Assembly (NCBI GenBank): GCA_049521175.1 | Contig: JBEKPB010000001.1 | Location: forward strand, 92,440 to 156,439 | From: Candidatus Limnocylindrales bacterium | GTDB taxonomy: Bacteria > Chloroflexota > Limnocylindria > Limnocylindrales > CSP1-4 | Reading direction: 5' to 3' | Length of the DNA: 64,000 nucleotides | Shown: positions 12,269 to 36,644 of the stretch, piece after piece | Numbering within the stretch: the stretch's first letter is position 1 | Layout: each line of letters opens with the position of its first letter | The notes under the pieces: generated by a model | The model's database searches: none | Told to the model about the DNA's origin: nothing | Seen by the model: only the letters and a program-made list of their open reading frames with translations | Position numbers and translations under genes: made by a program

Positions 12269-12313
12269 GCCGTTCCTCCTCCGTGTGGTACCGTCCGGCG
12301 CCGACGGGCGCCC

Positions 12314-15047: not shown

Positions 15048-15049
15048 GG

Positions 15050-18222: not shown

Positions 18223-18509
18223 AGCGCCGGCACCTTCGACGAGACCGTGGACGATGTCCCTTCGAGCAACTCGATCGCGTAGACCTCTATGAGCGGATTG
18301 CTCAGAAGCTCCTTGGAGAGGCCGTCGACGACGGCACGGGCCTCGGGCTCTGAACCTGCCGTGACGGTCAGCTCGGCCCTGCGCCCGATGCGGACCTTCG
18401 AGACGTTGCTCACGTTGAGATGGGGCAGGCTCAGCTCAACCGCCCGTCCCTGCGGATCGAGGATGCCCGGCTTGGGCAGCACGTTGACGGCATACCGGAA
18501 CTCGCTCAT
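18219..18509 (-). CDS. purS: FGAM synthase PurS subunit.
   Basis: MSEFRYAVNVLPKPGILDPQGRAV is a PurS fold signature. The gene is about 96 aa with a 15-aa C-terminal tail that overlaps the purQ start. Confidence 0.8.
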   Translation of the reverse strand: MSEFRYAVNVLPKPGILDPQGRAVELSLPHLNVSNVSKVRIGRRAELTVTAGSEPEARAVVDGLSKELLSNPLIEVYAIELLEGTSSTVSSKVPAL

Positions 18510-20849: not shown

Positions 20850-22282
20850 GAGACGCCACCTCCCGTCCAGGCGGTCTCGGACACGGGCTCTCTCGCGGCT
20901 GCATCCGCATCGACCGGTGGCAGAGCCGCGGCGATGTCGTGGCGCCGCTGCACGCCGGACCAGGCGATGAGGTCTGCCGCCGCCTCGGCGCAAGCTCGCG
21001 CCGCGGGAATAGTGGCCCCCAACCCGACCACTGCCAGAACGCGGCCCCCGTTGGTGCGGAACCCGCCTCCGACGTCTCTGACCGTACCCGCATGAAAGAC
21101 AGTGGCTCCAGCCGCTGCTGCTTCCTCGAGGCCTGTGATGGCGTCGCCCTTGCGGGGGCTCTCCGGGTAGCCGGCGGCCGCAAGCACGATGGCCACGGCC
21201 GCGTCACCGGTGGTCGGCAGCAGCCCGCCGTTCAACCCCAGCTCCGCGGCGGCGGAGGCTAGATCCCCTTGGGCGGCGCCATAAAGGAGCGGCCCCAGCG
21301 GGACGGCGAGTCGAGGCAGGAGGGCCTGGATCTCCGGATCCCCGAACCGGGCGTTGCATTCGATCAAGACGGGGCCTTCCGGCGTGACCATCAGCCCGGC
21401 GTAGAGGGCGCCGCGGAACGGCGCGCCGCGCCGGGCCAGCTCGGCCAGGATCGGCAGGTGGATCACGTCGACGAGAGTGGCGCACAGGCTTTCCGGCAAA
21501 TCGGGCACGGGGCTGTAGGCGCCCATGCCGCCCGTGTTGGGACCCCGGTCGGCGTCGAGTAGTCGCTTGTGGTCGCGGGCGGGAGGCAGCGCCAGTGCCC
21601 CGTGGTCGTCGCACATGGCGATGAGGCTCGCCTCGGCTCCGTTCAGCCGCTCCTCGATCACGACGACGGGTTGGGCCGGGTCGCCCGAGGGCAGCGCCGC
21701 GAAGAGCGTCTTCAAGGCGGCCTCTGCGGCGGGGTAGTCGTCACACACGGTGACGCCCTTGCCGGACATCAGCCCATCTGCCTTGATCACGACACCGCGC
21801 GACGCAGGAGCCTCGGCGAGCAGCCTCGCAAACTCCATCGCCGGCTCGATGGCCACGAAGTCGCGGCCGCGGGCCATCCGCACGCCCGCAGCGGCGGCGA
21901 CGTCGCGACAGAAGGCCTTGCTCCATTCGATCCGGGCCGCGGCCCTGGTCGGCCCGAAGGTGGGCACGCCGGCATCTAGAAGGGCGTCGACGACACCCGC
22001 GGCGAGCGGCGCCTCGGGCCCGACGACGACCAGGTCGACATCCTCGCGGGTGGCGACGTCGACAACCGCGGCCGGATCAAGCGCCGACACCTCCGGGAAG
22101 CAGCGGACCTTCGACTCCTGGCCGATGGCGTCGCTCCCCGGGGCGACGATGACGGCCTCGACCGCAGCCTCGCGGCTGAGGCTCCAGACGAGGGCATGCT
22201 CCCGGCCGCCACCACCCAGCACGAGCAGGCGGGCGGGGCCGCTCACGGCGGCCCCTCCGCTCTTGCCCGCACGAGGAGTCAT
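20846..22282 (-). CDS. purD: Phosphoribosylamine-glycine ligase.
   Basis: The N-terminus is ARLLVLGGGGREHALVWSL, and the protein has an ATP-grasp core. The ATG at 22282 overlaps the purA stop (ATGA). The 921-aa track ORF is extended by an alternative frame over purA. Confidence 0.85.
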   Translation of the reverse strand: MTPRAGKSGGAAVSGPARLLVLGGGGREHALVWSLSREAAVEAVIVAPGSDAIGQESKVRCFPEVSALDPAAVVDVATREDVDLVVVGPEAPLAAGVVDALLDAGVPTFGPTRAAARIEWSKAFCRDVAAAAGVRMARGRDFVAIEPAMEFARLLAEAPASRGVVIKADGLMSGKGVTVCDDYPAAEAALKTLFAALPSGDPAQPVVVIEERLNGAEASLIAMCDDHGALALPPARDHKRLLDADRGPNTGGMGAYSPVPDLPESLCATLVDVIHLPILAELARRGAPFRGALYAGLMVTPEGPVLIECNARFGDPEIQALLPRLAVPLGPLLYGAAQGDLASAAAELGLNGGLLPTTGDAAVAIVLAAAGYPESPRKGDAITGLEEAAAAGATVFHAGTVRDVGGGFRTNGGRVLAVVGLGATIPAARACAEAAADLIAWSGVQRRHDIAAALPPVDADAAAREPVSETAWTGGGVS

Positions 22283-23640
22283 CGATTCGCCGATGCTGGG
22301 GGCGGCGCGGCCGCCGGACCCGAACCACCCGGAACGACGACGGGCGGCTTCGGCCGCTGCGGGCGGGGCATCCGCTCGATCGTCTGGCTCCGTTCCGGCC
22401 CCACGGAGACGAAGCAGATCGGAGCGCCGGAAAGGCGCTCGACCGCGTCGACGTACAGCCTGGCGTTCTCCGGCAGGTCGCTCATCGCGCGGCAGTCGTG
22501 CAGCGGCTCGGTCCAGCCGGGGAAGTGCTCGTAGATCGGTTTCGCCCTGGCCAGAACGTCCGCGTCCGACGGCCACCAGTCGACCCGCTGGCCGTCGACT
22601 TCGTAGGCCATGCAGATCAAGACTTCCTCGAGGCCGGACAGGATGTCGATCTTGTTGAGCATGATCGAGCTGACGCTGTTGACCGCGACCGCATAGCGCA
22701 ACGGAACGGCATCGAACCACCCGACGCGGCGCCGCCGGCCGGTCGTGGTTCCGAACTCCCGGCCGCGATCGATGATCCCCTCGCCGATCTCTTCGGTCAG
22801 CTCCGTCGGGAACGGACCGGCCCCGACGCGGGTGGCGTACGCCTTCATGACGCCGATCACTTCGTCGACCTGGAGCGGCCCGATCCCGCCGCCGGTGCAT
22901 GCCCCGCCGGCTATCGGGTTGGACGAGGTCACGAACGGATAGCTGCCGTGGTCGAGATCGAGCAGCGTGCCCTGGGCGCCCTCGAAGAGAAGGTGATCGC
23001 CCCGCGCAAGCATCCCCTGGACCAGCTGCGTCGTGTCGGCGAGATGTGGCTCGAGCCGGCGTCCCCATCCGGTCGCCAGCGTCACGAGCTCGTCGAGGTC
23101 GAAGCCGTCGACGCGATGCTGGCGCTGGAGCGTGGCATTCTTCTCGGGCAGGATCCGCGCGAGCTTGCTGCGCAGCGCCGGACCGTCGAGCAGATCCTCC
23201 ATTCGGATGCCGATGCGCCAGGCCCGGTCGGCGTACGCGGGGCCGATGCCGCGCCGCGTCGTCCCCACCGCCGCCTTGGCGAGTCGAGCCTCCATTGCCC
23301 CGTCGAGGGCGATGTGGTACGGCATGATCACATGGGCGTGCTTGCTGACACGGACCCGTTCCACCTCGATGCCGCGGCTGGCGAGCATGTCCAGTTCGGC
23401 AATCAGGGTCGCTGGATTGACAACGACGCCGTTGCCGATGATCGGCGCGATGTGCGGGTAGAGCACACCCGAGGGGACGAGGTGGAGCTTGAAGACCTCC
23501 TCGCCCAGCATGATCGTGTGACCGGCGTTGTCGCCGCCCTGGTATCGGACCACGGCCGTGACGTTCTCGGCCAGCGCGTCCGTGGTCTTGCCTTTGCCCT
23601 CGTCGCCCCACTGCAGGCCGACGATCACGGTGGCGGGCAT
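22279..23640 (-). CDS. purA: Adenylosuccinate synthetase.
   Basis: MPATVIVGLQWGDEGKGKTTD is the P-loop. The protein contains GGDNAGHT. It has a Pro-rich tail of about 25 aa at the C-terminus. GGAGGA lies 4 nt upstream of the ATG. Confidence 0.9.
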   Translation of the reverse strand: MPATVIVGLQWGDEGKGKTTDALAENVTAVVRYQGGDNAGHTIMLGEEVFKLHLVPSGVLYPHIAPIIGNGVVVNPATLIAELDMLASRGIEVERVRVSKHAHVIMPYHIALDGAMEARLAKAAVGTTRRGIGPAYADRAWRIGIRMEDLLDGPALRSKLARILPEKNATLQRQHRVDGFDLDELVTLATGWGRRLEPHLADTTQLVQGMLARGDHLLFEGAQGTLLDLDHGSYPFVTSSNPIAGGACTGGGIGPLQVDEVIGVMKAYATRVGAGPFPTELTEEIGEGIIDRGREFGTTTGRRRRVGWFDAVPLRYAVAVNSVSSIMLNKIDILSGLEEVLICMAYEVDGQRVDWWPSDADVLARAKPIYEHFPGWTEPLHDCRAMSDLPENARLYVDAVERLSGAPICFVSVGPERSQTIERMPRPQRPKPPVVVPGGSGPAAAPPPASANR

Positions 23641-23973
23641 CTAGTCCTCCCCCCGGTGCTCGCCCGGCGGTCGTCCATCTGGTAACCCCGGGAAACCAAA
23701 AGGCCCTCGGCCGACCGGCCGGGGACCTGGGTAGACTGCCCCTCCGTTGGAGCCGCGGCTCCTGAGGGAGCGAAGGTGGTGGTTCGTCTCACGGGGCGAA
23801 CAGCACGCCTTCCTGGGGCAACGTGGCCTCCTTGGCGATGTTGTCTCTGGAACCCGATGGCGCCTCGGCCTTGGGCAGTCCGGAGTATAGCAGGCGGGAG
23901 ACCCTCAACCGAAGCCCCGGACGCGAGCGGCGCAGAATCGAGCGGCCCGCGAAACGCCTGCCGAGGAGAGCTA

Positions 23974-24759
23974 CTACTCCCCCGCCGAAGGCGCCGCAGC
24001 GGCCGGGCTACCGGCGAGGGCGGCTCGCACGGCCTCGGGGCCGCGAGCCCGCCACTCCGCCGCGATGGCGGCCGTAGCCGTCGCCCCGACCCGGCATGCA
24101 CCGGAGGCGAGCATCGCCAGCATTGCATCGAGGGTTCGAACTCCGTGCGCGGCCTTGACGCCCACACTGTCGCCGACGACGCGCCGCATCAATGCGATCT
24201 CGCCCGGCTCCGCTCCACGCGGCGAGAAGCCGGTTCCGTTCTTCACGAACGCCGCTCGGGCCTCGACGGCCACGCGACATCCGGCTTCCACCTGCTCCGG
24301 GGTCAGATACGCGGTCTCGAGGATCACCTTGACCGGGGTTGGTGAGACGGTGTAGATGAGCCCCGCCAGCTCGTCTCGGACGTAACCCAGCTCGCCTGCC
24401 CGCAGCGCCCCGATGTTCACCACGACGTCGAGCTCGACTGCACCCTGATCGACAGCCAGGATGGCCTCGCGCTCCTTGATCGCGGACACGTTGGCGCCGT
24501 GCGGGAAACCGACCACGGTGGTGGGCCCGACCACCGACCGCCGGAGCCGACCGACGACGAATTGCAGGTCGGCCGGCCGGCAGCATACCGTGGCCGTCTC
24601 ATATTCGATCGCCAGGTCGCAACCGGCCTCGACGTCGGCTCGTGTGAGATCGGGTCTGAGCAGGGAGTGGTCTATGGTGCCCATCAGGGTCTTCTCGTCG
24701 AGCATCATGAGGTCCAGCGGCGCACGATTCCCGAGCCGCACCTTGAGGACTTGCTTCAT
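23974..24759 (-). CDS. Divergent deoxyribose-phosphate aldolase (DERA/DeoC family) paralog with no encapsulation peptide. It is the last gene of the BMC operon.
   Basis: The protein contains IDHSLLRPD, GFPHGAN, the Schiff-base Lys context VKVILET, FVKNGTGF and VGVKAAHGVRT. The canonical VCVNP, FVKTSTG and VKASGGIRT motifs are altered. Confidence 0.7.
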   Translation of the reverse strand: MKQVLKVRLGNRAPLDLMMLDEKTLMGTIDHSLLRPDLTRADVEAGCDLAIEYETATVCCRPADLQFVVGRLRRSVVGPTTVVGFPHGANVSAIKEREAILAVDQGAVELDVVVNIGALRAGELGYVRDELAGLIYTVSPTPVKVILETAYLTPEQVEAGCRVAVEARAAFVKNGTGFSPRGAEPGEIALMRRVVGDSVGVKAAHGVRTLDAMLAMLASGACRVGATATAAIAAEWRARGPEAVRAALAGSPAAAAPSAGE

Positions 24760-24767
24760 CCGTGCTC

Positions 24768-25853
24768 CTAGGACGCCGAGGCCACGATTGCCAGCGCGTG
24801 GCTGCCGCCAGCATCGATGGCGATCACGTTCGAGAGATGCGCCGGAAGGGTCGCCTGGCCGGATTCGTTGCCGCCCCAGACTACAACGGTTCCGTCAGCC
24901 TTGAGAGCCAGGCTGAAGTTGCCGCCGGCCGCGATGGCGACCGCGTGCAGGCCCGGCGGCACGGTCGTCTCGCCGTCGTTGTTGCCGCCCCAGGAGACAA
25001 CCGTCCCGTCCGACTTGAGGACGAGGTTGTGGGCGAAGCCGGCCGAGATCGCCGTCACCCCGCTCAGGCCGGCCGGAACCTTGACCACGCCGGAGGCGAC
25101 ATCGGTCGGGTATTTGTCCCCCCAGGCGACCACGGTTCCATCGCTCAGCAGGGCCAGGCTGAAGTCGTAGCCGGCCGAGACCTGAACTACGTTCTTGAGG
25201 CCGGTCGGCACGTCGGTCGCGCCGTTCGAGTCGTCGCCCCAGGCAACGACGGTTCCGTCGGACTTGAGGGCGATCGCATGCGAACCCGCGGCGCCGATTC
25301 CGACTACGTTGCTCAAGCTGGCCGGCGGGGTTGACTCGCTATCGGAGTTGTCGCCCCAGCCGACGACGGTGCCGTCGACCTTCAGGGCCAGGCCGAAGTT
25401 GCTACCCGCCGAGATCGCCCGGACATTGGTTGCGGAGACGGGTATCTGCGTCTCCGCCGGGTCGTTGGCGCCGCCCCATGCGGTGACGGTCCCATCAGAC
25501 TTGAGGGCCATACTGAAGTCGTCGCCCGCGGCAACGGCGACGACGCCGGTGAGTCCGGGTGCAACGTCGGTCTCGCCCGAGCTGTCGTCGCCCCAGGCCA
25601 CGACGGTCCCGCTCTGTACGGGCGCTGACGAAGCCATGCCGGACGGCCGCGCGCTCGGGGTCGTTCCCGCCGGAATTGACGGCGCGACGGTTCCGCGCGA
25701 GCCCGGAGGTCCGGAGCCAGCCGCTGGCGACGCGGCAGTGGACGGGGTCGGCGTGGTGCCGGCGAGCCCGCTGCAGGCCGCGACCGTGATTGCCAGGGCG
25801 CCCGTAAGGATGAAACCGCCAAGCCCGCAGAGGGCTTGTCTCCTCGTAGCCAT
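24768..25853 (-). CDS. RCC1-repeat (seven-bladed beta-propeller) protein with a Tat signal and a lipobox.
   Basis: MATRRQALCGLGGFILTGALAITVAACSG contains an RR motif and a lipobox Cys. The protein has seven repeats of about 50 aa of the form GTVVAWGDDSxGxTDVPxGLxxVVxVSAGxxFSLAL. The gene is 8 bp downstream of the next gene in the operon. Confidence 0.7.
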   Translation of the reverse strand: MATRRQALCGLGGFILTGALAITVAACSGLAGTTPTPSTAASPAAGSGPPGSRGTVAPSIPAGTTPSARPSGMASSAPVQSGTVVAWGDDSSGETDVAPGLTGVVAVAAGDDFSMALKSDGTVTAWGGANDPAETQIPVSATNVRAISAGSNFGLALKVDGTVVGWGDNSDSESTPPASLSNVVGIGAAGSHAIALKSDGTVVAWGDDSNGATDVPTGLKNVVQVSAGYDFSLALLSDGTVVAWGDKYPTDVASGVVKVPAGLSGVTAISAGFAHNLVLKSDGTVVSWGGNNDGETTVPPGLHAVAIAAGGNFSLALKADGTVVVWGGNESGQATLPAHLSNVIAIDAGGSHALAIVASAS

Positions 25854-25968
25854 CTGACCTCCTCATGGGACGCTGGCACCGCCCCCGACGACGACGCCAC
25901 CGGCAGCATAGCGCGCGAGCCTACCCAGGTGGCCGCAGCGGCCTGCAACTGTCCCACGGCGGCTCCGA

Positions 25969-26250
25969 CTAGACCGCCGCCGGCCCCTCCACGACGGCGT
26001 CCACAATCCCGACGACCAGCGTCCGGATCGGGGCGCCCGGCGCGTTCAATACCTGGCGGGCCGAGTTGCCCTCGTCGAGGATCAGGACCGTCTCTCCGGC
26101 GCCGGCACCAACGGTGTCAACCGCGATGAGATAGCCGCCGGCCGGGCGACCGGACGGGTCGAGGAGGTCGCACAGCAGGAGCGTCCGATTGTCGAAGTCG
26201 GGCGCGTTGATCGTGGAGACGACCGTGCCCACGACGCGGCCCAGCTTCAT
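25969..26250 (-). CDS. BMC vertex protein (BMC-P, EutN/CcmL/PduN family), copy 1.
   Basis: The sequence MKLGRVVGTVVSTINAPDFDNRTLLLCDLLDP...IAVDTVGAGAGETVLILDEGNSARQ is EutN-like. The start is at M125 of the track ORF, giving an ATGA overlap with the upstream gene. Confidence 0.8.
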   Translation of the reverse strand: MKLGRVVGTVVSTINAPDFDNRTLLLCDLLDPSGRPAGGYLIAVDTVGAGAGETVLILDEGNSARQVLNAPGAPIRTLVVGIVDAVVEGPAAV

Positions 26251-26531
26251 TGCTCGTTCCCCGCGAGCGCGGAGACCGCGTCCACGATCCCTACGATCGC
26301 GTGGTCCACCGGGACGAATGGGTCCGGCATCGCCTGGGCGGCCTCGCGGGCAGCCACGAAATAAACGAGCTCGCCGGGACCGGCCATGTGGACCGCGTCG
26401 GCCGCGACCAGCTGGCCACCGGTCGGTTTGAGCGACCGATCGAGCGGCTGGATCACGAGGAGCTTGACGCCCTCGAGTCCGGGCGCCTTGACGGTGGCGA
26501 CGACCGTGCCGATAACCCGTGCGAGCTGCAT
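26247..26531 (-). CDS. BMC vertex protein (BMC-P), copy 2.
   Basis: The sequence is MQLARVIGTVVATVKAPGLEGVKLLVIQPLD...VAADAVHMAGPGELVYF. Confidence 0.8.
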   Translation of the reverse strand: MQLARVIGTVVATVKAPGLEGVKLLVIQPLDRSLKPTGGQLVAADAVHMAGPGELVYFVAAREAAQAMPDPFVPVDHAIVGIVDAVSALAGNEQ

Positions 26532-26536
26532 GCCGG

Positions 26537-27199
26537 CTACCGGCCCTTCCGCCGTGGAGCGGGCGCCGAGGCTCGGGCCCGCGCCGCAGCGGTACCGGTG
26601 CCCGCGCCCCGGACCCGCTCACGGAACTGCCCGTCCGCCGCCAGGTTCACGGCCATCTCCGAATGCAGCTGCGGAATCACTCGCGACGCCAGGCCCGGCG
26701 CCCCGACGATTCGGCCGGCGCCGATCTCGACCGCGGCCTCAACCTCGCTGACGGGTCCGTCGAACAAGAGGTAGGCCTTGCCGCCGAGGTCGTCGGCCAG
26801 GCGCAGCTCGACGAGACGGACCCGCGCGCCCTTGAGCCCGGCGTCGGCGGCCTCGATGATCGCGGCGACGGTGGCGGTCTCGATGACGCCGAGGGCCTCG
26901 CCCGCGGCCTCTCGGCACGAGCCGCCGATAGCGGCGATCAACTCCGGGTGGGCATTCGGCAGGAAGACGACGTCGACGATGGCCGACGCGCCGGCCTCGC
27001 GGCCCGCCGCCAACGACTCTTCGACGTCTCCGACCGTGCCTCCGATGAGAACCAGGTACTTCCCGGGGTGCACCGTGCCGGCCCGCAGGACATCGATTGG
27101 GGCGCGCTTCGCCATGGCGTCGCCGGCGGCGATGCCGGCCGCGATCGAGTCGAGCTCGATAAGTGCGAGGGCCGGTTCGATGCCGAGGCTGGTTGTCAT
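26537..27199 (-). CDS. Tandem-domain BMC shell protein (BMC-T, PduT-like, two canonical PF00936-type domains).
   Basis: Domain 1 is IEPALALIELDSIAAGIAAGDAMAKRAPIDVL. Domain 2 is EALGVIETATVAAIIEAADAGLKGARVRLVELRL...GGKAYLLFDGPVSEVEAAVEIG. Confidence 0.75.
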   Translation of the reverse strand: MTTSLGIEPALALIELDSIAAGIAAGDAMAKRAPIDVLRAGTVHPGKYLVLIGGTVGDVEESLAAGREAGASAIVDVVFLPNAHPELIAAIGGSCREAAGEALGVIETATVAAIIEAADAGLKGARVRLVELRLADDLGGKAYLLFDGPVSEVEAAVEIGAGRIVGAPGLASRVIPQLHSEMAVNLAADGQFRERVRGAGTGTAAARARASAPAPRRKGR

Positions 27200-27201
27200 C
27201 G

Positions 27202-28665
27202 TCAGACGATCCGCAGCGCGCCGACGACGGTGATCCGCCGCTCGCGCGAGAAAGTCCGCGGCCGGGTCAAGCCATCGCCGGACGGGCTGGCGATCGAGAA
27301 CGAGGTGAAGCCCTCACCGCCCTCGCCCAGGCCCGCGAAGTTGGGCCCGTTGGTCACGAAGATGCTGCAGTTCATGGCGCGGGCCATCCTTGTGATGGTG
27401 TCGACGTTTGTGGAGTGGATGGACGCCGTGTGGCGGAAACCGTGCTCGGCGCGCACCGCCAGATCGATCGCCTGCTCGACGGTCCCGACCCGCACGACCG
27501 GGAGGAGCGGCATCATCTGCTCGGTCCAGACCAGGCTGTGGTCGCGCGGCACGTCCGCAATCAGGAGTCGCGGCGTCGGCTCGACCTGGACGCCGATCTC
27601 AGCCAGCATCCTGGCAGCGTCCTGGCCGATCCAGGCCGGGTTCATGACGCCTGGCTTCCCGGGCTGGCCGAGCTCCCTGAAGACAACTCGCTCGAGCCGG
27701 CGTAGCTCGTGCTCCTTCAGCAGGTAGGCGCCGTTCTGGGTCATAGACCGGATCAGCCGGTCGGCGACGGTATCCACGACGAGCACGAGCTTCTCGTCGA
27801 TGCAGACGATGTTGTTGTCGAACGAGGCGCCGCGGACTATGTCGCGGCCCGCTCGCTCTATGTCGGCGGTTCCGTCGACGACCGCGGGCGGGTTGCCGGG
27901 ACCGGCAGTGATCGCTCGCTTGTCGGACTTGAGCGCCTCGCGGACGACCGCCGGCCCGCCCGTCACGAGCAGCACGCGGACACTGGGGTGCAACATCAAG
28001 GCGCGTGCGGTTTCGATCGTCGGGTTCGCGGCGGCCGACACGAGGTTTGGCGGCCCTCCGGCACCGACGACGGCCCGGTTGATGAGCCGCACCGTTTCCG
28101 CCGAGCATCGCCGCGCGCTCGGGTGGGCGTTGAAGACGACGGCGTTGCCGGCCGAGACGATGCTGATCGTGTTGTTGATGATCGTCGAGGTGGGGTTCGT
28201 GACCGGCGTGATGGCCGCCACGACGCCGAACGGGGCGAACTCGGTGACCATCATCCCCGCATCGCCCGTGACGGCCTGGACCTCGAGGTCCTCTGGCCCT
28301 GGCGCCTTGGAGGCCACCAGGCGGTTCTTGACGACCTTGTCCTCGACGCGCCCGAGGTGCGTTTCCTGGTGGGCCATGCGGGCCAGCTGCTCCGAGTGGT
28401 CGAGCATCGAGCGACGCACGGCGTCGATGATGACCTTGCGGCCGGCCAGGCCCTGCACCTGGAACTCACCGAACGCTCGCGTGGCTGCGGCAACGGCATC
28501 GTCGATCGTGGCGTGGATGCCGTCGCCCAGCTCCGCGGCCGCGGCGGTCGCCAGCTCGGCCTCGGCTCGCAGCCCTTCGCCGGGCCGCGCGTCACCGGCC
28601 GTCGCCACGCGGCGGCGGACGCGCTCGATGATCTCGGTGATTTCGCGTTCGTCGAGCTCGCTCAT
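27202..28665 (-). CDS. CoA-acylating aldehyde dehydrogenase (PduP/EutE-like) with an N-terminal encapsulation-peptide-like helix.
   Basis: The aldehyde dehydrogenase core contains ITPVTNPTSTIINNTISIVSAGNAVVFNAHP and a catalytic Cys in DNNIVCIDEK. The N-terminus MSELDEREITEIIERVRRRVATAG is amphipathic. Confidence 0.85.
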   Translation of the reverse strand: MSELDEREITEIIERVRRRVATAGDARPGEGLRAEAELATAAAAELGDGIHATIDDAVAAATRAFGEFQVQGLAGRKVIIDAVRRSMLDHSEQLARMAHQETHLGRVEDKVVKNRLVASKAPGPEDLEVQAVTGDAGMMVTEFAPFGVVAAITPVTNPTSTIINNTISIVSAGNAVVFNAHPSARRCSAETVRLINRAVVGAGGPPNLVSAAANPTIETARALMLHPSVRVLLVTGGPAVVREALKSDKRAITAGPGNPPAVVDGTADIERAGRDIVRGASFDNNIVCIDEKLVLVVDTVADRLIRSMTQNGAYLLKEHELRRLERVVFRELGQPGKPGVMNPAWIGQDAARMLAEIGVQVEPTPRLLIADVPRDHSLVWTEQMMPLLPVVRVGTVEQAIDLAVRAEHGFRHTASIHSTNVDTITRMARAMNCSIFVTNGPNFAGLGEGGEGFTSFSIASPSGDGLTRPRTFSRERRITVVGALRIV

Positions 28666-28677
28666 CGTGTTCGCCCG

Positions 28678-28965
28678 CTACTTGCGGTATACCTCCGTCC
28701 CGCCTATTTCCCACGTGTCCACGATGGCCATGATCACGGCGTCGCACGGCCGGTCGCGCGTCATCTCCGTCTGGCGGGCGGAGCTGCCGGTGGCGTAGAG
28801 GACGACCTCGCCGACACCCGCGCCGACCGTGTCAGCGGCCACGACGTAGCCTCCAGCTTCCCGGTTCTGGGCATCGAGCTGGCGCACGACGAGGAGCTTC
28901 CAGCCCTCCATCAGCGGTTCTTTGCGACTCGCGACCACGGTTCCGGTTACCCGTCCAAGGAGCAT
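28678..28965 (-). CDS. BMC vertex protein (BMC-P), copy 3.
   Basis: The sequence is [31 protein letters not shown]...[17 protein letters not shown]. Confidence 0.8.
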
Positions 28966-29027
28966 CTCGTCACCGCCTGCATCAAGGCGCGCGCGCCGGT
29001 GTTAAGCCGGCGCGCCGCCACTCGCCT

Positions 29028-29336
29028 CTACTTCTGGCCGGCCTCGGCCTTGGCCTCGGCAAGCCGCCCGAGCGGCAGGACGAGGTCGACGTTGACGTGC
29101 GGCCGGGCGATCACATGGCTGGCGACGACTTCGCCGACCTTGGCGGCGTTTCGGACGCCGGCGTCGACCGCTGCCTTGACGGCGGCGACGTCGCCGCGCA
29201 CCACGGCGGTCACGTACCCGCCGCCGGTCTTCTCGTAGCTGACCAGCTCGACCTTGGCCGCCTTGACCATAGCGTCGGCGGCCTCGACCACTGCCGCGAA
29301 CCCGCGGGCTTCGATCATCCCAAGCGCTTCTGCCAT
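29028..29336 (-). CDS. BMC hexamer shell protein (BMC-H, PduA/EutM-like). It is the only one in the locus.
   Basis: The N-terminal sequence [60 protein letters not shown] is close to the BMC-H consensus. Confidence 0.9.
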
Positions 29337-29391
29337 CGACCTTGTCTCCTTCTCGTTCGGCTGCTCGACCTTCCGGTCGATGCCGTTGCTG

Positions 29392-30021
29392 TCATGCCTT
29401 CGCTTCGCGTCCTTCGAGTCCCTCGATCGCCGCCAGCGCGGCGCGCCAGCCGACGTCGATGTCGCGCTCCTCGCCGCCCAGGTATATGCGGCCCATCGAG
29501 CCGAAGGACCGAACTTCGAGGATGTTGATGTGCGCCGCCTTCTCCGCCTCGTTGGCCGCGAGAGCGGCGTAAGCGGCCGGTTCGAGTTCCAGCACGTAGA
29601 GCGTCTGGCCGGGTATCAGCATCTGGCCATGACGCGTCCGGTTGATGAGCTGAGCCTGGTGGTCGTCGATCCGGCGGATGATCTGCGATGACAGGACTCG
29701 CGGCTTGATCCGATCGGTCTCGGCCAGGCCGATGTCGGCGAGGATCGCGGCGCCGGCGGCGCGGACCTCCGCCTGCGACGGCGAGTGGATCTCGAGCATG
29801 CCGTAGTAGCGCTCGATGATCTGCATGCCGGGCTTGACTGTCGTCGACTTGAGCGCGACGTCGGTCAGCCGGTTGATCTCGATGCCGGGCGAGATCTCGA
29901 TCTCCAGCGAAGCGTCGCCGGCGAGCGGCAGGAATCCCTGCGCGACAGTCCCGAGGAAGGCGGCGTACTGGGCCTGGAGGCTATCCAGGAAGACGTACGC
30001 CCGAAGGTCAATATTGCCCAT
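29392..30021 (-). CDS. Putative circularly permuted tandem BMC shell protein (BMC-T, EutL/PduB-like).
   Basis: The protein is 209 aa with two permuted BMC-like halves ([19 protein letters not shown]...[26 protein letters not shown] and [31 protein letters not shown]...[12 protein letters not shown]). I assigned it by pattern only. Confidence 0.55.
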
Positions 30022-30904
30022 GTGCGCCCTTCTCTCCCGTGACGATCTTGACGCCGGCAGAAGCCCCGATCCGGGTCGCCCCGGCTGCGATCATGTCCTG
30101 GACATCCTCCGCGGTGCGGATGCCGCCGGAGGCCTTGACGCCCATCTTTGGGCCGACGGTCTCACGCATCAGCGCGACGTCGAAGACCGTCGCTCCGCCC
30201 TTGGCGTACCCGGTGGACGTCTTGACGAAGTCGGCTTTGGCCTGCTGAGCCAGGCGGCAGGCGATCACCTTCTCCTCGTCGGTGAGTAGGCCGGTCTCGA
30301 TGATCACCTTGCAAAGCGTGCCGGCCTCGTGGCAGGCGTCGGCGACGCGGGCGATGTCCTCGCGGACCTGGGCCTGCATCCCGCTCTTGAGCGCCCCGAT
30401 ATTGATGACCATGTCGATCTCGCGGGCGCCGTCGCGGATCGCCCGGCGCGCCTCGAACACCTTGATCTCTGTCGGCGTGGCTCCGAACGGGAAGCCCACG
30501 ACCGAGGCGACCCCGACATCCGAGTCGCGCAGGTCGTCGGCCGCGCGGCGCACCCAGGTGGGGTTGACGCAGACCGCAGCGAACCGGAACTCGGCCGCCT
30601 CGGCGCAGAGCTTGTCGATATCGGCGACCACGGCGTCTGGGCGCAGGAGCGTGTGGTCGATGTAGCGGGCGAGGTCCGTAGGAACGTCGGCCGCCTGGCC
30701 GTGGTACTCGACGCGGGAGGCACCTCCGGCCACGACGTCGCGGACCCTCGTTGCGCACTGGGCGGCGCATGCGCCGACGCACCCTGCGCAGATCCCGCTT
30801 TGGGCCCCTGGGGTGCCTGTGGCGCCGCGCCCGCTCAGCGACGCCAGCACCTGGCTGGTGATCCTCTCGACGAGCTCGTCGCGGGTGTACTTTGCCTCCG
30901 TCAT
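30008..30904 (-). CDS. deoC: Deoxyribose-phosphate aldolase (DERA) with an N-terminal encapsulation-peptide-like extension and a Cys-rich linker.
   Basis: The DERA core contains [37 protein letters not shown] and [10 protein letters not shown]. The N-terminus [25 protein letters not shown] is followed by [13 protein letters not shown]. Confidence 0.85.
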
Positions 30905-31533
30905 CCTCGAACCTCACCGGCCGCAGCCATGTAGCGGCGCTCTATCGCCGTGATCTTCTCGACCCTCGCGGCGTGCCGCCCGGGGGCCCATTCCGTGCCG
31001 AGCCAGGCCCGCACGATCTCGATGGCCAGTCCCTCACCGATGAAGCGAGCACCCAGTGTGAGGACGTTGGCGTGGTTGTGCTCGCGGCTGTTCCGCGCGC
31101 TTGAAAGGTCGTGGCACAGGGCGGCGCGGATGCCCGGTACCTTGTTGGCGACCATGCACGAGCCGATCCCGGCGCCGTCCAGGATGATTCCCCACTTGCA
31201 GGTCCCGTCCGCGACCAGGCGCGCGACTGCATGGGCGATGTCGGGGTAGTCCACGGGGTCGCTGCCGTGGGTGCCGCAGTCGTGGACCGCGAAGCCGCTC
31301 TCGGTCAGCATCTGCCCGATCACGTCCTTGAGCGCGGAGCCGCCGTGATCGGCGCCGATGGCGATAGCCACGCACTCGGAACCCGGCTGAGTTGTCGCGG
31401 GAGCCGCCACTGTCGCCGGCGAGTTTCCAGTTGCGCCCGTCCCGTCGCCCGCCAGCGTGGCGTCGACAATGCCGCGCACGATGTCGCGGAGCTCGTCCGC
31501 GGAAGGGGTCGCCGGAACGCGCTGGTCACTCAT
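30901..31533 (-). CDS. rpiB: Ribose-5-phosphate isomerase B (RpiB/LacAB family) with an N-terminal encapsulation-peptide-like extension.
   Basis: The RpiB core contains [14 protein letters not shown]...[22 protein letters not shown]...[12 protein letters not shown]. The N-terminus is [29 protein letters not shown], followed by a Pro/Thr/Ala-rich linker of about 50 aa. Confidence 0.8.
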
Positions 31534-32521
31534 GGCTCAGCACCCACACGGCCGTTTCCTCGTCCGTCACCATGACGTTGACGCAGCCCGACCGAAGGGC
31601 GGCCAGGGCGATCGGACCGCGGCCCGGTCCGGCAGCGACCCCAACGGTCAGTGCTTTGGCGCAGAGCTCTTCGAGCGGCAACCCGATGGTCCGCCGGTCG
31701 AGCGACGGCAGGGCGATGTGGCCGTCGAGCGACAGGAACCGCCCCAGGACGTCACCCACTGCCCCGGCGTCCGCAAGCGCCGCGAGGTCTGGTTCGCCAA
31801 TGAAGCCGGACGCGACATGGACGCTCTCGGCGCCCAGAACGCCCATGCTGAAGACGGCGGTCTGCGCAGAGCGCGCCGCGGCCAGCGTCTCGCCGACCGA
31901 TGCGTCTCGCTCGAGAGCTTCGCGCAGCTCGGGTGAGCCGACGATCGCAGGGGCGGGCATCAGTTGGATTGCGGCCCCGCTCGTGAGCCCGAACTGCTCC
32001 ACGACCTCTTGGGCCCGGGTGGGTCGGGCGGAGCGGGACATCGCTCCGTTCAGCTGCACGATCTCCGACGCCACGGTCCAGCCGGGGCGCAGGTGCGCGG
32101 CGACCTCGAGCATCGTGCGCCCCCACGACACGCCGATCGCACCCGTCGGTCGCAACGCGGTCAGGTGAGCGGCGGCAGCCCCGGCGACCCGCTCGCGGGC
32201 GAGAAGCTCCTGGTCCGCGGCGGAAGCGGTCGGCGGCACGTCGACGACGACCGCGCTGCGCAGGCCGAACCGACCGACGAGGCCGTCTTCGAGCTCCACC
32301 AGACGAACGTCGGGATGGACGATCTCGATCCGGACGGCCGACTCGCGCAGGGCGCGATCCAGGAGGCGGCCGACCTTGAACCGGCTGACACCCAACCGTT
32401 CGCCGACCTGCCCCTGGGTCAGGTGAAGCCGGTAATAGAGCTGCGCGGCGCGGAGCATCAGCCGAGTCTCCAGACCCAGCTCGTCCTGCCCGAGGATCGC
32501 CGCTCCGGCTCCCATGCTCAA
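31526..32521 (-). CDS. SorC/DeoR-type sugar-phosphate-binding transcriptional regulator. It is the first gene of the BMC operon.
   Basis: The N-terminal HTH is LMLRAAQLYYRLHLTQGQVGERLGVSRFKV. The C-terminal sugar-binding domain contains IGVSWGRT...GVLGAE. Confidence 0.75.
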   Translation of the reverse strand: MSMGAGAAILGQDELGLETRLMLRAAQLYYRLHLTQGQVGERLGVSRFKVGRLLDRALRESAVRIEIVHPDVRLVELEDGLVGRFGLRSAVVVDVPPTASAADQELLARERVAGAAAAHLTALRPTGAIGVSWGRTMLEVAAHLRPGWTVASEIVQLNGAMSRSARPTRAQEVVEQFGLTSGAAIQLMPAPAIVGSPELREALERDASVGETLAAARSAQTAVFSMGVLGAESVHVASGFIGEPDLAALADAGAVGDVLGRFLSLDGHIALPSLDRRTIGLPLEELCAKALTVGVAAGPGRGPIALAALRSGCVNVMVTDEETAVWVLSHE

Positions 32522-32559
32522 ATGTGCGGCCGATTGCTCATATGATCAAGACTACGCGG

Positions 32560-32720
32560 TCGAGAACGGCGCTGTCAAGGGATGCCGGTACCAGCTTCGT
32601 GGGGCCTCTGTGAAGGCCACAAGCAGCGTCGCCACCTTTGTCGCGGCCGCGAACGAGTTCCGCAGAAACGGCAAGGAGCGCGCCGACTATCAGGTCAACG
32701 TCGAGGTTTGGCGCCCGACG
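32560..32720 (+). pseudogene. Degraded fragment of an ssb paralog (the N-terminal OB-fold portion only).
   Basis: The plus-strand translation LRGASVKATSSVATFVAAANEFRRNGKERADYQVNVEVWRP is collinear with the intact SSB 1 kb downstream (LRSLASGSSVATFAVATNEFRGNGKERAEYHNVVVWDR). The fragment has no start and no C-terminus. Confidence 0.5.
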
Positions 32721-32792
32721 CCTCGCGCCAGGAGCCGTGCAGCCGCAAGCGGGCTTGGCGCCGGCTGCGACAGTCTCGGACTTCGGACCAGA

Positions 32793-33455
32793 TCATCGGG
32801 TCCTTCCGGCTCGGACGGCCCAGAGCGGCAACGCCAGCAGCGCGGCCAACCAGACGAACAGCCACCAGTTCGGGAACATCGGAAACAAGACCACAGGCAA
32901 CGTGATCAAGAGCATCACGAGATAGGCCACCCACGGGCCGTATCTCCTCATCGGCGGTCGCCTGATCGCTCGCCACACGAAGGTCGAATTGCCGCCTCGT
33001 ACGAGATCCACCACAGCCAGCACGACGCCCGCGGCTGCTGTCCCGGCGAAAAGCCAGAGTCCCCACGCCGGCGTCGGGGGAATGACCCACCCGGACTGAT
33101 CGCCGTACAGGGCCTCCTGGAATTCGAGGATCGCCCCGTAGAACGCCGCCGCGAACGCGACCAGGATGGCGACCTTGGCGCCACGCGCCGGAAAGGCCAA
33201 GCCGGCGAGGGCGACAACGATCGCGACGAGCGGAGCGTATGGAGTCAGCAGGTCCGCCATCGTAAGCGCCGCGACGGAGTAGCCGCCTGCGGAGATCCAG
33301 GTCGAGTAGCCCGGGCCCGAGATCACGTACCAAGGCACGAACCACGACCAGATGAGAACGGCCGCGGCTCCGATCTCCAGGAGCGCGAGGACGCTTCGGT
33401 CGCCCCGATCGACCGTCGAGCCTGCCTTCAGGCTGTCGCCGGCTTGGCTCTGCAT
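32793..33455 (-). CDS. Hypothetical polytopic membrane protein (about 220 aa, 5-6 TM segments).
   Basis: The ATG at 33455 has a GAGGGG RBS. The protein has hydrophobic segments throughout. The longer track ORF overlaps ssb on the opposite strand and is rejected. Confidence 0.45.
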   Translation of the reverse strand: MQSQAGDSLKAGSTVDRGDRSVLALLEIGAAAVLIWSWFVPWYVISGPGYSTWISAGGYSVAALTMADLLTPYAPLVAIVVALAGLAFPARGAKVAILVAFAAAFYGAILEFQEALYGDQSGWVIPPTPAWGLWLFAGTAAAGVVLAVVDLVRGGNSTFVWRAIRRPPMRRYGPWVAYLVMLLITLPVVLFPMFPNWWLFVWLAALLALPLWAVRAGRTR

Positions 33456-33650
33456 GGTCGACCCCTCAGTGGCAGATCCGGCCGCGACGCGAGTGTGTCC
33501 CGATTTCCGAGGGCGGCCGGGTATCACTGAGTATGCGCAGTCGAATAAGCCTTGGATGAGCCGCGGTTGATCGGGCGCGGATATGGTCACGGTACCCGCC
33601 GCAAGAGAGGGCGTCGTGAGGAAGCGGCGCCGGAAGAGGAGATTGGGACC

Positions 33651-34136
33651 GTGAACAAGGTCCTCTTGACCGGGCGACTGACCCGGGATCCGGAGCTCCG
33701 ATCGCTGGCCAGCGGATCGAGCGTCGCCACCTTCGCCGTGGCCACGAACGAGTTCCGCGGCAACGGCAAAGAGCGCGCCGAATATCACAATGTCGTCGTT
33801 TGGGACCGGCTGGCTCAGGTCTGCGGCCAGTATCTGGGCAAGGGTCAGCAGGTCGCCATCGAAGGCCGGCTGCAGACCCGCCAGTGGGACGATGACCGCG
33901 GAACGCGCCACTGGAAGACGGAGGTCGTGGCCACGTCCGTTGAGATGCTGTCGGGTCGCCGGAAGCGCGACTACGAGGCCGACTCACTCGCCGCCCAGGC
34001 GGGTGATCCGGGTGCGGGCGATCCCGCTGCCATCTCCCCCAACGAAGCGGCCGAGGTCGGCGTCGTGACCGTGGCCGACGCGCTACCCGACGAGTCCGCC
34101 TCGAGCGACGACGAGCAGGTGCTCGTCCTGGTGTAG
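33651..34136 (+). CDS. ssb: Single-stranded DNA-binding protein.
   Basis: The GTG start gives MNKVLLTGRLTRDPELR. The protein has an OB fold with GNGKERAEYHNVVVWDRLA and an acidic C-terminal tail DDEQVLVLV. The track start is further upstream. Confidence 0.85.
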   Translation: MNKVLLTGRLTRDPELRSLASGSSVATFAVATNEFRGNGKERAEYHNVVVWDRLAQVCGQYLGKGQQVAIEGRLQTRQWDDDRGTRHWKTEVVATSVEMLSGRRKRDYEADSLAAQAGDPGAGDPAAISPNEAAEVGVVTVADALPDESASSDDEQVLVLV

Positions 34137-34146
34137 ATGCCTCCCC

Positions 34147-34182
34147 GGAGCGCGGCACGGTAACCCCCACCGGCCGCGCTCC
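34147..34182. terminator. Bidirectional terminator-like hairpin between convergent ssb and the PNP gene.
   Basis: GGAGCGCGGC-N16-GCCGCGCTCC is a perfect 10-bp GC-rich stem. Confidence 0.45.
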
Positions 34183-34245
34183 CCCACCTTAGACGATGCT
34201 CGCGGGCGGGTGGCACGACCCCGCGCCGGATGCAGCCGTTGCGGA

Positions 34246-35112
34246 CTAGGCCTGAACCAGGCCGCCGACAAACCGCGTCAGAACGCGGGCCAGCGCGGGG
34301 CCGGCCGCCTCGGCCGCGGCAAGCACCTCGGCGTGGCTCAGCTCCGAGCCCGACAACCCGGCGCCCGGATTCGTCACGAGCGAGACGCCGCAGACGCGCG
34401 AACCCGCCCAGTGTGCAGCCACGGCCTCGAGCGCGGTGGACATCCCGACCGCATCGACACCCAGGCGGTCCACCATGCGTACTTCTGCCGGAGTCTCGTA
34501 GCTGGGCCCGAGAAGGCACGCGTACACGCCGTCTGCCAGCGCCACCCCCTCTGCATCGGCCGCGGCGTGCAGACGCGATCTCAGATCAGCGTCCCAGACG
34601 CCGGTCATGTCCGGGAAGCGCGGCCCGATCTCCGGCGCGTTCGGACCGGTGAGGGGTGAACGCCCAGTGAGATTGATGTGGTCGGCAATCGCCATCAGGG
34701 TGCCGGCGGCGTAGGTCCGGTTGACGCCGCCCGCCGCGTTTGTGAGCACGACGGACTCGACGCCCAGCAGCGCCATCAGTAGCACCGGCTGGACCACGAA
34801 CCCCGCCGAATGGCCTTCGTACAGATGGAAGCGACCCTGCTGGACGACGACCGGGGCCCCGGCAAGGCGCCCGAAAAGGAGCCTACCGGCGTGCCCAGGT
34901 GCCGTGGCCGCGGGCCAACCGGGCAACTCGGCGAATGGAATGGCGACGTCGAGGTCGATGGAGTCGGCCAGCCCGCCAAGACCTGAACCGAGCACCAGGC
35001 CTGCGAGCGGCCTGAGGTTCGTCCGCTCACGGACGGCCCGCTCCAGCAAAGCCAGCAGCGGAGGCTGTTCGGCCGGCGATATCTCACGCCCGAGGACGAA
35101 ATCCGCGGTCAT
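34246..35112 (-). CDS. punA: Purine nucleoside phosphorylase (trimeric PNP/MTAP family).
   Basis: The protein contains GLVLGSGLGGLAD, HLYEGH and VGMSTALEAVAAHWAG. The ATG at 35112 overlaps the cdd stop. Confidence 0.8.
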   Translation of the reverse strand: MTADFVLGREISPAEQPPLLALLERAVRERTNLRPLAGLVLGSGLGGLADSIDLDVAIPFAELPGWPAATAPGHAGRLLFGRLAGAPVVVQQGRFHLYEGHSAGFVVQPVLLMALLGVESVVLTNAAGGVNRTYAAGTLMAIADHINLTGRSPLTGPNAPEIGPRFPDMTGVWDADLRSRLHAAADAEGVALADGVYACLLGPSYETPAEVRMVDRLGVDAVGMSTALEAVAAHWAGSRVCGVSLVTNPGAGLSGSELSHAEVLAAAEAAGPALARVLTRFVGGLVQA

Positions 35113-35600
35113 CGACCGCGGCCACCGGACGCCGACCCGCTCGCCGCAGCCTCGTCCAGGTTCTTCGCCCAGAAGGCGAGCGGCAGCAGGTCGCCCAGCC
35201 GGGCGGCGTAGACGGAGTCGCTCAGACTGGAGGCGGCGAACACGAGGAGGTCCGGGCCGAATTCGGCGAGGAGCTGGCGGCAGATCCCGCACGGACTCGA
35301 CGGCTCGGCGGTCGGGGTGACCACCACGCAGACCCGGACCGACGTCTCGCCACCGACAACCGCCCCAACGACGGCGCTCCGCTCGGCGCAGATCGTGGCC
35401 CCGTACGAGGCCGACTCGACGTTGCATCCGGGATAGATCGCGCCGCTGCCCCCGAGGATCGCCGCACCCACATGGAACCGCGAGTACGGCACCCGGGCGC
35501 GGCCCTGGGCCGCGAGGGCGGCAGCAAGCAGATCGTCGAACTCACGCAATCGCGTCGAGGCTTCCGCCCGGTCGATGAGCTCTATCCCGGCAACCGTCAT
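35109..35600 (-). CDS. cdd: Cytidine deaminase.
   Basis: The zinc motifs CAERSA and PCGICRQ are present. The protein is 163 aa, from MTVAGIELIDRAEA. Confidence 0.85.
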   Translation of the reverse strand: MTVAGIELIDRAEASTRLREFDDLLAAALAAQGRARVPYSRFHVGAAILGGSGAIYPGCNVESASYGATICAERSAVVGAVVGGETSVRVCVVVTPTAEPSSPCGICRQLLAEFGPDLLVFAASSLSDSVYAARLGDLLPLAFWAKNLDEAAASGSASGGRGR

Positions 35601-35690
35601 CGAAGACACCTCACTGAGCAATTGCCTTTCCCCCAGTAGTGATAGCGTCTGCGCCAACCACCGATCACCGCCGGCGAGGAGAGGACACCG

Positions 35691-36563: not shown

Positions 36564-36644
36564 GCCCGACACATCGGTCTACGGCTCGGCCACGGATCAG
36601 TCTACGGCGCGGCCGCAACGATCGATCGCGGAGCCGGATGCACT

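Follow-up and report, generated by a model that had tools for sequence, protein, structure and literature searches.

A locus of ten genes on the minus strand of a contig from a Candidatus Limnocylindrales bacterium (GenBank assembly GCA_049521175.1, contig JBEKPB010000001.1) quite probably encodes a bacterial microcompartment (BMC) of the sugar-phosphate utilisation (SPU) class, subtype SPU3, i.e. a metabolosome that would degrade deoxyribose-5-phosphate (dR5P) from DNA and keep the toxic acetaldehyde enclosed; a neighbouring pair of genes, for an RCC1-repeat lipoprotein and a second deoxyribose-phosphate aldolase (DERA2), would then be a separate and older module. The DNA analysed comprises 64,000 nucleotides (positions 92,440 to 156,439 of the contig, forward strand) and is referred to as the window; all coordinates given are window positions. 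The BMC locus (genes 1-10) extends over 25969-32521, or over 25969-32578 with its promoter/operator region.

SPU loci are among the most widespread BMC types; they were defined in 2014, and more than 280 loci in seven subtypes were known by 2021 (PMC8217296). A preliminary description of this DNA had placed the locus in the SPU class, and the diagnostic enzymes are indeed present, i.e. a deoxyribose-phosphate aldolase (DERA), an RpiB-family protein and a CoA-acylating aldehyde dehydrogenase (AldDH). The chemistry that it proposed, the cleavage of dR5P into glyceraldehyde-3-phosphate plus acetaldehyde and the conversion of the latter to acetyl-CoA, is the published model of the class (PMC11585597). 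Its statement that the class is known only from comparative genomics, with no characterised member, is outdated because DERA and the RpiB-family protein (RPI) of an SPU6 locus have since been studied in vitro (Dwyer, Sutter and Kerfeld 2024, Commun Biol, PMC11585597) and self-assembling SPU-like shells from Asgard archaea were reported in a 2025 preprint. The SPU6 locus studied is that of Chloroflexi bacterium GWB2_54_36, and its enzymes are the only SPU enzymes characterised in vitro (PMC11585597). No report of a native SPU organelle that had been isolated or tied to a physiological role was found in the literature searched. The system described here is not a new kind of compartment; the only unreported features identified are a four-cysteine motif in the DERA extension and a conserved regulatory element.

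The gene content of the locus, its catalytic residues and helices, its synteny and its conserved regulatory DNA can be read from the sequences. Twelve open reading frames (ORFs) lie on the minus strand in 23974-32521, all at the coordinates given beforehand, and their families and spacing are also as first described (ORF list, Pfam, GC content at third codon positions). Codon-position GC supports all 12 frames, with a third-position GC of 0.82-0.91 in a genome of ~69% GC. By their coordinates, the genes overlap by 8, 4, 14 and 4 nt or are separated by gaps of 55, 62, 12, 2, 5, 115 and 8 nt, the largest of which (115 nt) lies between the gene for BMC-P number 3 and the RCC1 gene. The expected Pfam families were matched for the most part (Sugar-bind, LacAB_rpiB, DeoC, BMC, EutN_CcmL three times, and Aldedh); a shell protein of 209 amino acids (aa) stayed below the BMC threshold, and its identity was settled by its match to CcmP and by PF27545. 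For the shell, the locus encodes one BMC-H, one tandem BMC-Ts, one BMC-Tdp and three EutN_CcmL proteins, and no further shell genes were found elsewhere in the window.

The signature enzyme of the locus, DERA1 (30008-30904, minus strand, 298 aa; Pfam DeoC, 82.6 bits), matches solved DERAs at E=5e-76 and exceeds 60% identity to characterised DERAs, with the catalytic triad and the phosphate-binding motifs complete. The triad (D164, K199, K228) is invariant in 42 orthologues. The catalytic domain (aa 77-293) is preceded by an N-terminal extension (aa 1-76) that consists of a helix (aa 8-24), a variable linker and the four-cysteine motif, in this order; the 76-aa extension is absent from non-BMC DERAs, and was missing as a whole from 10 of 10 cytosolic DERAs. 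In an AlphaFold2 model built from DERA1 and the 42 orthologues, the barrel is mostly of high confidence and the helix of aa 8-24 is predicted. The DERA of the SPU6 locus was active on dR5P after removal of an N-terminal extension of ~70 aa (PMC11585597).

The RpiB-like protein (30901-31533, minus strand, 210 aa; Pfam LacAB_rpiB, 177 bits over aa 57-194) carries an encapsulation-peptide-like helix (aa 12-25, hydrophobic moment 0.72; the 99th percentile of the background is 0.64), followed by a linker rich in G, T, A and P. When aligned with the RpiB proteins of E. coli and C. thermocellum, its motif 'LDGAG' falls on 'ICGTG', i.e. the catalytic Cys is replaced by Asp, and the same replacement is found in 61 of 61 BMC-linked orthologues with a readable motif. 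The gene overlaps that of DERA1 by 4 nt (ATGA), an arrangement indicative of translational coupling. The RPI of the SPU6 locus showed negligible ribose-5-phosphate isomerase activity, carries Asp instead of the catalytic Cys, as do all SPU RPIs, and forms a complex with its DERA (PMC11585597). Because of the Cys-to-Asp replacement, the SPU6 DERA-RPI complex, the 4-nt coupling and the gene fusions seen among SPU3 loci, the RpiB-like protein probably acts without catalysis, as a core or scaffold partner that helps to pack DERA, and a contribution of isomerase chemistry by it appears unlikely, given the same replacement in the inactive SPU6 RPI.

The alternative would be that the compartment handles another or an additional aldehyde-generating substrate, with the RpiB-like protein as a true isomerase of an unusual sugar phosphate that feeds DERA, or with DERA acting on another 2-deoxy sugar phosphate; in that case, the system would not be devoted to dR5P from DNA. 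The strict conservation of the Asp would suggest selection on an active site rather than decay, RpiB of M. tuberculosis uses Glu as catalytic base (cited in PMC11585597), the role of the SPU RPI is called 'enigmatic' by its investigators (PMC11585597), and the regulator of the locus lacks a lysine of its B. subtilis relative (see below). This alternative is nevertheless improbable in view of the negligible isomerase activity of the SPU6 protein with the same Asp, the degree of identity of DERA1 to characterised DERAs together with its complete triad and phosphate-binding motifs, and the nucleoside catabolism genes in the neighbourhood.

A subset of the BMC-linked RpiB orthologues has a different N-terminal module of ~50 aa ('…(V/I)TPLAR(Q/E)xAxER(G/R)(I/V)xL…') in place of the short amphipathic helix (loci L019, L020, L023, L029, L032, L034, L035, L040, L041, L045, L051, L061 and L075 of the survey described below).

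The AldDH (27202-28665, minus strand, 487 aa; Pfam Aldedh, 115.5 bits) matches the BMC aldehyde dehydrogenase of R. palustris (5jfl, E=3e-127, aa 34-486) and retains the catalytic Cys ('NNIVCIDEK'). It has no C-terminal extension; an encapsulation-peptide-like amphipathic helix is found at its N-terminus instead (aa 5-20; hydrophobic moment 0.85 over aa 7-20). Every gene of the locus is accounted for; PTAC, alcohol dehydrogenase and PduS are not among the encoded proteins.

The shell proteins are the most conserved part of the locus. The 209-aa BMC-Tdp (29392-30021, minus strand), which had been described as a permuted BMC-T, is a double-permuted tandem protein of the CcmP type, as concluded from its match to CcmP (5lsr/4ht5, E=1.4e-86 over aa 4-206) and from its precomputed annotation as PF27545 (CsoS1D_N); its score for the Pfam BMC family is 19.6 bits, vs. 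a threshold of 24.5 bits. It also matches BMC-T proteins of Haliangium ochraceum (HO; 5v76/5v74, E=1e-72 and 1e-67) and, far less closely than CcmP, CsoS1D (E=3e-50), and it shares 94-97% identity with its counterparts in the closest loci, whose DERAs are 77-80% identical. The Glu-Arg pair of its motif 'IER' aligns with identical residues of CcmP, which we take to be the gating residues, and the protein is presumed to form a gated pore for large metabolites. BMC-H (29028-29336, minus strand, 102 aa; Pfam BMC, 102 bits), the main hexameric shell protein, has the BMC-H of HO as its best solved relative (5djb/5v74, E=8e-41, ~86% identical). The pentameric vertex protein BMC-P number 1 (28678-28965, minus strand, 95 aa; Pfam EutN_CcmL, 104 bits) is closest to the BMC-P of the intact HO shell (5v74, E=3e-33). 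Two further pentamer genes follow downstream, for BMC-P number 2 (26247-26531, minus strand, 94 aa; EutN_CcmL, 91.7 bits) and BMC-P number 3 (25969-26250, minus strand, 93 aa; EutN_CcmL, 85.4 bits); the ATG of the latter overlaps the stop codon of the former by 4 nt, and this adjacent pair is kept in related loci. The three BMC-P proteins are mutually ~45% identical. The PduT-like tandem protein BMC-Ts (26537-27199, minus strand, 220 aa; two Pfam BMC domains, 114.6 bits) has 'HPGK' vs. 'CPGK' when aligned with PduT (3vcd/3n79), i.e. a His at the position of the Fe-S pore Cys.

The shell encoded in the window probably resembles the solved HO shell, because BMC-H is so similar to its HO counterpart and because BMC-P number 1 is closest to the HO pentamer. 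The nearest solved BMC-H and BMC-P number 1 are those of the HO shell (PDB 5V74 etc.), BMC-Tdp matches its BMC-T2/T3, and BMC-Ts matches T1; the HO shell comprises one H, three P, one Ts and two Tdp proteins, whereas the window encodes a single Tdp, and the main HO locus contains neither DERA nor RPI and is of unknown function.

BMC-Ts has a C-terminal tail of 38 aa (aa 183-220, window 26537-26650) that is rich in Arg, Lys and Ala, basic (…RERVRGAGTGTAAARARASAPAPRRKGR) and located beyond the PduT-aligned region. DNA-binding K/R-rich tails were described on a shell pentamer of the Asgard SPU-like compartments in the 2025 preprint; a parallel between these and the BMC-Ts tail would be speculative.

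For the subtype assignment, one genome per species was scanned, which yielded 80 loci (numbered with the prefix L), and the window proteins were mapped onto these by tblastn. The gene order RpiB-DERA-Tdp-H-P-AldDH-Ts-P-P was found in Chloroflexota and also in Acidimicrobiia, Thermoanaerobaculia, Neomarinimicrobiota and Calditrichia, and the same genes were found in Myxococcota loci, in which Tdp lies at the end (L021) or was undetected (L083). The shared locus type thus spans at least six phyla, with a slightly changed layout in Myxococcota. The main text of PMC11585597 and Supplementary Data 2 of Sutter et al. (2021, Nat Commun) served as sources for the subtype statistics; SPU3 is represented by 31 loci in the latter. 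The SPU3 enzymes listed there are AldDH and pfam02502 followed by pfam01791, with N-terminal encapsulation peptides (EPs) on AldDH and DERA; the shell comprises a single BMC-H, a triplet of BMC-P, a Tdp of the CcmP-like clade, and a Ts that lacks both a pore Cys and a PduS partner (Sutter 2021). By sequence and synteny, the locus in the window matches this description on every listed point. The enzyme set, the position of RPI upstream of DERA, the N-terminal helices on AldDH and DERA and the lack of PTAC are the same, as are the single BMC-H, the BMC-P triplet with two adjacent genes, the CcmP-like Tdp and the Ts without PduS or pore Cys; furthermore, the phyla of the related loci are those listed for SPU3. 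The comparison with the published catalogue thus allowed the subtype to be named. In contrast to some SPU3 loci, in which RPI and DERA are fused, the two are separate genes with a 4-nt overlap in the window, and the window differs also in the DeoR-like SorC regulator with its conserved promoter and repeats and in the adjoining nucleoside cluster.

The features that define SPU6 are not those of the window locus (EP position of AldDH, Ts, Tdp clade). The two types share the DERA extension of ~70 aa, the Asp/Lys/Lys triad, an RPI with N-terminal EP and Cys-to-Asp replacement, the BMC-P triplet, BMC-Tdp and a Chloroflexota host. The SPU6 locus, in contrast to the window, has no BMC-Ts and another gene order, an AldDH of an EUT3-like branch with a C-terminal EP (the EP-like helix is N-terminal in the window), a Tdp of the blue clade (EUT3-like; the window Tdp is CcmP-like), and a GntR-type rather than a SorC/DeoR-type regulator. 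SPU6-like loci of Anaerolineae (e.g. Levilinea, L077) show the order RpiB-DERA-P-AldDH-H-Tdp-P-P, without Ts, and their AldDH is 31-37% identical to that of the window.

A locus in decay or without function, left over from a horizontal transfer, is hardly credible. The syntenic site of a related genome is without the locus, and BMC loci move between phyla; all ten ORFs are intact, however, with high third-position GC and conserved catalytic residues, and the shell proteins are still 94-97% identical in relatives in which DERA identity is down to 77-80%. Dozens of near-identical copies are found on long metagenomic contigs, and the locus shows no compositional anomaly; an identical DERA1 is encoded on contigs of 250-374 kb from JGI and ENA metagenomes that are collinear with the window. 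Close homologues are assigned by their sources to Candidatus Limnocylindrales (Chloroflexota). A recent horizontal acquisition visible in composition was considered separately and rejected, since the GC content of the locus (0.69-0.70) is like that of the flanking DNA.

The four-cysteine motif of the DERA1 extension (Cys39-x2-Cys42-x3-Cys46-x3-Cys50) lies at aa 39-50 (window 30755-30790). C39, C42, C46 and C50 are invariant in the 42 close orthologues, though the linker before them is variable in both length and sequence. A similarly spaced cluster of four Cys is present in 46 of 64 BMC/RpiB-linked DERAs, in SPU3-like and SPU6-like loci alike (L004-L012, L015, L016, L026, L028, L036, L038, L042, L056, L077 and others), with the spacing Cx3Cx4Cx3C in SPU6-like loci vs. 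CxxCxxxCxxxC in the window. When the 76-aa extension by itself served as HMMER query against 1.84 billion representatives, 28 hits were obtained, all of them N-termini or fragments of DERAs save one repetitive junk protein, so that the extension was found on no other enzyme in that search. The extension of the SPU6 DERA is described in the main text of the 2024 paper as a helix and two low-confidence strands only, and a word search of that text gave no cysteine, zinc or iron tied to the extension (PMC11585597); in the text of the 2025 Asgard preprint, neither 'cysteine' nor 'N-terminal extension' is present. Tentatively, the cluster could bind Zn or an Fe-S centre and serve the assembly of the core or redox communication in compartments without PduS. 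A conserved Cys4 motif in the targeting extension of the signature enzyme is a candidate for a metal-binding test.

Downstream of the BMC genes, the same strand encodes an RCC1-repeat beta-propeller lipoprotein (24768-25853, 361 aa; Pfam RCC1_2 six times, 186 bits) and DERA2 (23974-24759, 261 aa; Pfam DeoC, 29.5 bits), both as neighbours outside the BMC. The preliminary description had joined them with the BMC genes into a single operon of twelve genes; ten of these do form a locus, and RCC1 and DERA2 were found to be independent of it, being absent from every related BMC locus with more than ~10% divergence, present at a syntenic site free of BMC genes and provided with an upstream region of their own. 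The layout as such would favour one operon and one system, with RCC1 and DERA2 as BMC components: all 12 genes are on one strand, the RCC1 gene follows the last BMC-P gene after only 115 bp with no terminator recognised between them, and an identical 12-gene layout occurs in one relative (L084, 93%/87% identical). Apart from near-identical contigs, this relative is the only one in which the pair was found beside a related BMC locus; the other related loci, including the 77-80% relatives (L004, L006 and L012), have the BMC locus without RCC1 and DERA2 alongside. Conversely, L086/L087 carry the pair at the syntenic position between SSB and purA, and the fetched DNA there is free of BMC genes (order TP_methylase, hypothetical, SSB, 72-aa ORF, RCC1, DERA2, GAF, FIST, purA, purD, purB, purC; pair at L086 6907-8783), with identities to the window of 64% for RCC1 and 84% for DERA2, and the 5' region of RCC1 is conserved between the genomes with and without BMC. 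The RCC1 protein has an RR signal, a VAAC lipobox and a Pro/Thr/Ser linker, as read from its sequence, and is predicted to be exported because of the signal peptide and the lipobox. One operon comprising all twelve genes is therefore an unlikely arrangement for a single compartment system, and RCC1 and DERA2, as judged from synteny and conservation, are an independent, older two-gene module that merely abuts the BMC locus.

DERA2 in the role of a second encapsulated aldolase was rejected for its lack of a targeting helix, its membership in a family of its own and its pairing with RCC1 where no BMC is present. It is 44% identical to DERA1, aligns with solved DERAs at E=2e-45 and keeps the Asp/Lys/Lys triad, with altered phosphate-loop motifs ('KTSTG' to 'KNGTG', 'SGG' to 'AHG'); it contains neither the encapsulation-peptide-like helix nor the Cys motif, and its orthologues form a family of their own in Limnocylindrales. 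The RCC1-DERA2 pair is tightly spaced and conserved in Limnocylindrales with or without BMC, and would combine a secreted beta-propeller with a cytosolic aldolase.

The first gene of the BMC locus encodes a DeoR-like regulator of the SorC family (31526-32521, minus strand, 331 aa; Pfam Sugar-bind/SorC, 166 bits), with TTG at 32521 or ATG at 32515 as start codon. Its best solved relative is DeoR of B. subtilis, a deoxyribonucleoside regulator (8r7y, E=9e-37), and the closest Chloroflexota loci as well as two loci of Neomarinimicrobiota have it at the same position. B. subtilis DeoR represses the deoxyribonucleoside operon and binds its effector, dR5P, covalently (PMC11229326). Alignment of the upstream regions of eight loci was the only approach that revealed a probable promoter/operator in front of the gene (32515-32578, minus strand). 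It consists of TTGACA (32578-32573), a spacer of 18 nt and a -10-like TAGTCT (32554-32549), followed by two repeats, CATATGAGCA (32544-32535) and CATTTGAGCA (32524-32515), the latter overlapping the start codon of the regulator gene. TTGACA and the repeat core are invariant in 8 of 8 aligned upstream regions, and the flanking DNA is otherwise unalignable. This conservation suggests that the element is probably the promoter of the operon and an autoregulatory operator; it was overlooked in a consensus scan because of its weak -10 box. With 12 matches vs. 11.5 expected, the repeat motif CAYATGAGCR shows no enrichment in the window. A perfect copy of the repeat at the start codon of the Bmp gene described below, without partner repeat or TTGACA, was treated as a coincidence.

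Upstream of the BMC locus lie an SSB gene, a membrane protein gene and a cluster for nucleoside uptake and catabolism (34246-41752, on both strands; Pfam hits and gene calls), and a purine biosynthesis cluster lies downstream. The nucleoside cluster comprises genes for a purine nucleoside phosphorylase (PNP; 34246-35112, minus strand), a cytidine deaminase (35109-35600, minus), a phosphorylase of the PNP/UDP family (35691-36563, plus), two ABC permeases (36645-38899, minus), an ABC ATPase (38896-40464, minus) and a Bmp/PnrA-like binding protein (40565-41752, minus). A similar linkage is seen in the 77-80% relatives, in which the last BMC-P gene is followed by a gene for a membrane protein and then by an ORF judged on visual inspection to be thymidine phosphorylase: in L004 and L006, the thymidine-phosphorylase-like ORF, PNP and cytidine deaminase lie within 4 kb after the BMC genes, the latter two on the other strand, and in L012 the thymidine-phosphorylase-like ORF and PNP alone were found, ~5 kb from the BMC genes, with no hit for the deaminase. 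The fetched DNA of L086, which is without BMC genes, contains no nucleoside-transport cluster either; when window 33552-41752 is compared with L086 4309-6728, two extra blocks flank SSB in the window, the BMC locus and the nucleoside block. This single comparison suggests that the two blocks co-vary as accessory modules. The same co-variation could make the hypothesis of a 'DNA-scavenging organelle' testable in the environment, an idea that is put forward with as much reserve as the metal-binding role of the Cys motif. The classical cytosolic deo pathway of B. subtilis (dra-nupC-pdp) is alike in its DERA chemistry, its DeoR-like regulator of the SorC family and its linkage to nucleoside transport and phosphorylase genes; it differs by the absence of a shell, of encapsulation peptides and of an acylating aldehyde dehydrogenase dedicated to it. 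The DeoR-like regulator with its conserved element and the adjoining nucleoside genes lend circumstantial support to the deoxyribose-phosphate model.

In the proposed mechanism, nucleosides would be imported by the neighbouring Bmp-type ABC transporter and then deaminated and phosphorolysed by the neighbouring enzymes, as suggested by adjacency; the deoxyribose-1-phosphate formed would be converted to dR5P by a phosphopentomutase encoded outside the window, and dR5P would relieve the repression by the SorC regulator at the repeats just downstream of the TTGACA promoter. The shell would be assembled from BMC-H, the PduT-like BMC-Ts, the gated CcmP-like BMC-Tdp and the three BMC-P proteins, and the N-terminal amphipathic helices predicted on the three cargo proteins (DERA1, the RpiB-like protein and AldDH) may target them to it. 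Within the shell, DERA1, which has the residues for a reaction known for its SPU6 homologue only, would cleave dR5P into glyceraldehyde-3-phosphate plus acetaldehyde, and the RpiB-like protein would pack DERA into the core non-catalytically. AldDH, with its catalytic Cys in place, would turn the trapped acetaldehyde into acetyl-CoA, forming NADH. As none of PTAC, alcohol dehydrogenase and PduS is encoded, NAD+/NADH and CoA/acetyl-CoA would have to cross the shell, most plausibly via BMC-Tdp.

Several points weigh against the reading of the locus as a dR5P-degrading SPU3 compartment. Shell formation, encapsulation, substrate, induction and cofactor traffic are deduced from the sequences. The subtype was assigned by the published verbal description and by synteny; a formal assignment would use the shell-protein hidden Markov models of BMC Caller. 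The N-terminal helix of DERA1 has a hydrophobic moment of 0.49 and is thus only moderately amphipathic, below the background percentile given above, and the AlphaFold2 confidence is low for the whole extension (pLDDT <50 for aa 23-73), so that the model is uninformative on how the Cys motif is folded. As no recycling enzyme is encoded, the gene content leaves the compartment's cofactor economy unexplained. In the regulator, the Lys of the DeoR motif 'VQLKGG' is replaced by Asn. This Lys is presumably the Schiff-base residue that binds dR5P, and the effector of the regulator may differ from dR5P because of the replacement, its identity being uncertain. No phosphopentomutase gene is present in the window. 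Transcript boundaries are unsupported by consensus scans of 23400-33600, in which no promoter was found and terminators were not above shuffled sequence; in the whole window, neither Rfam (gathering thresholds) nor ARAGORN gave any hit, and there is thus no riboswitch or tRNA as a landmark.

The analysis provides a corrected parts list for cloning, with ten genes instead of twelve and with the RpiB-like protein as a probable scaffold. The host belongs to an uncultured, environmentally abundant lineage of Chloroflexota, which allows genomes that have the locus at this site to be compared with genomes that lack it there.

Other features of the window were recorded. A multi-pass membrane protein of 220 aa without Pfam family is encoded between SSB and the SorC gene (32793-33455) and was found only in near-identical contigs; in its stead, the 77-80% relatives have another membrane protein (~245 aa), encoded directly behind the last BMC-P gene. 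Two tandem clusters for peptide ABC transporters of the Opp/Dpp type are predicted upstream of the nucleoside cluster (44788-61599), with four genes for family-5 solute-binding proteins (44788-46524, 50973-52874, 57428-59314 and 59776-61599). The purine cluster downstream of the BMC locus (10001-23640) is almost complete and comprises purA, purD, purB, purC, purQ, purL, purM and a purN-purH fusion.

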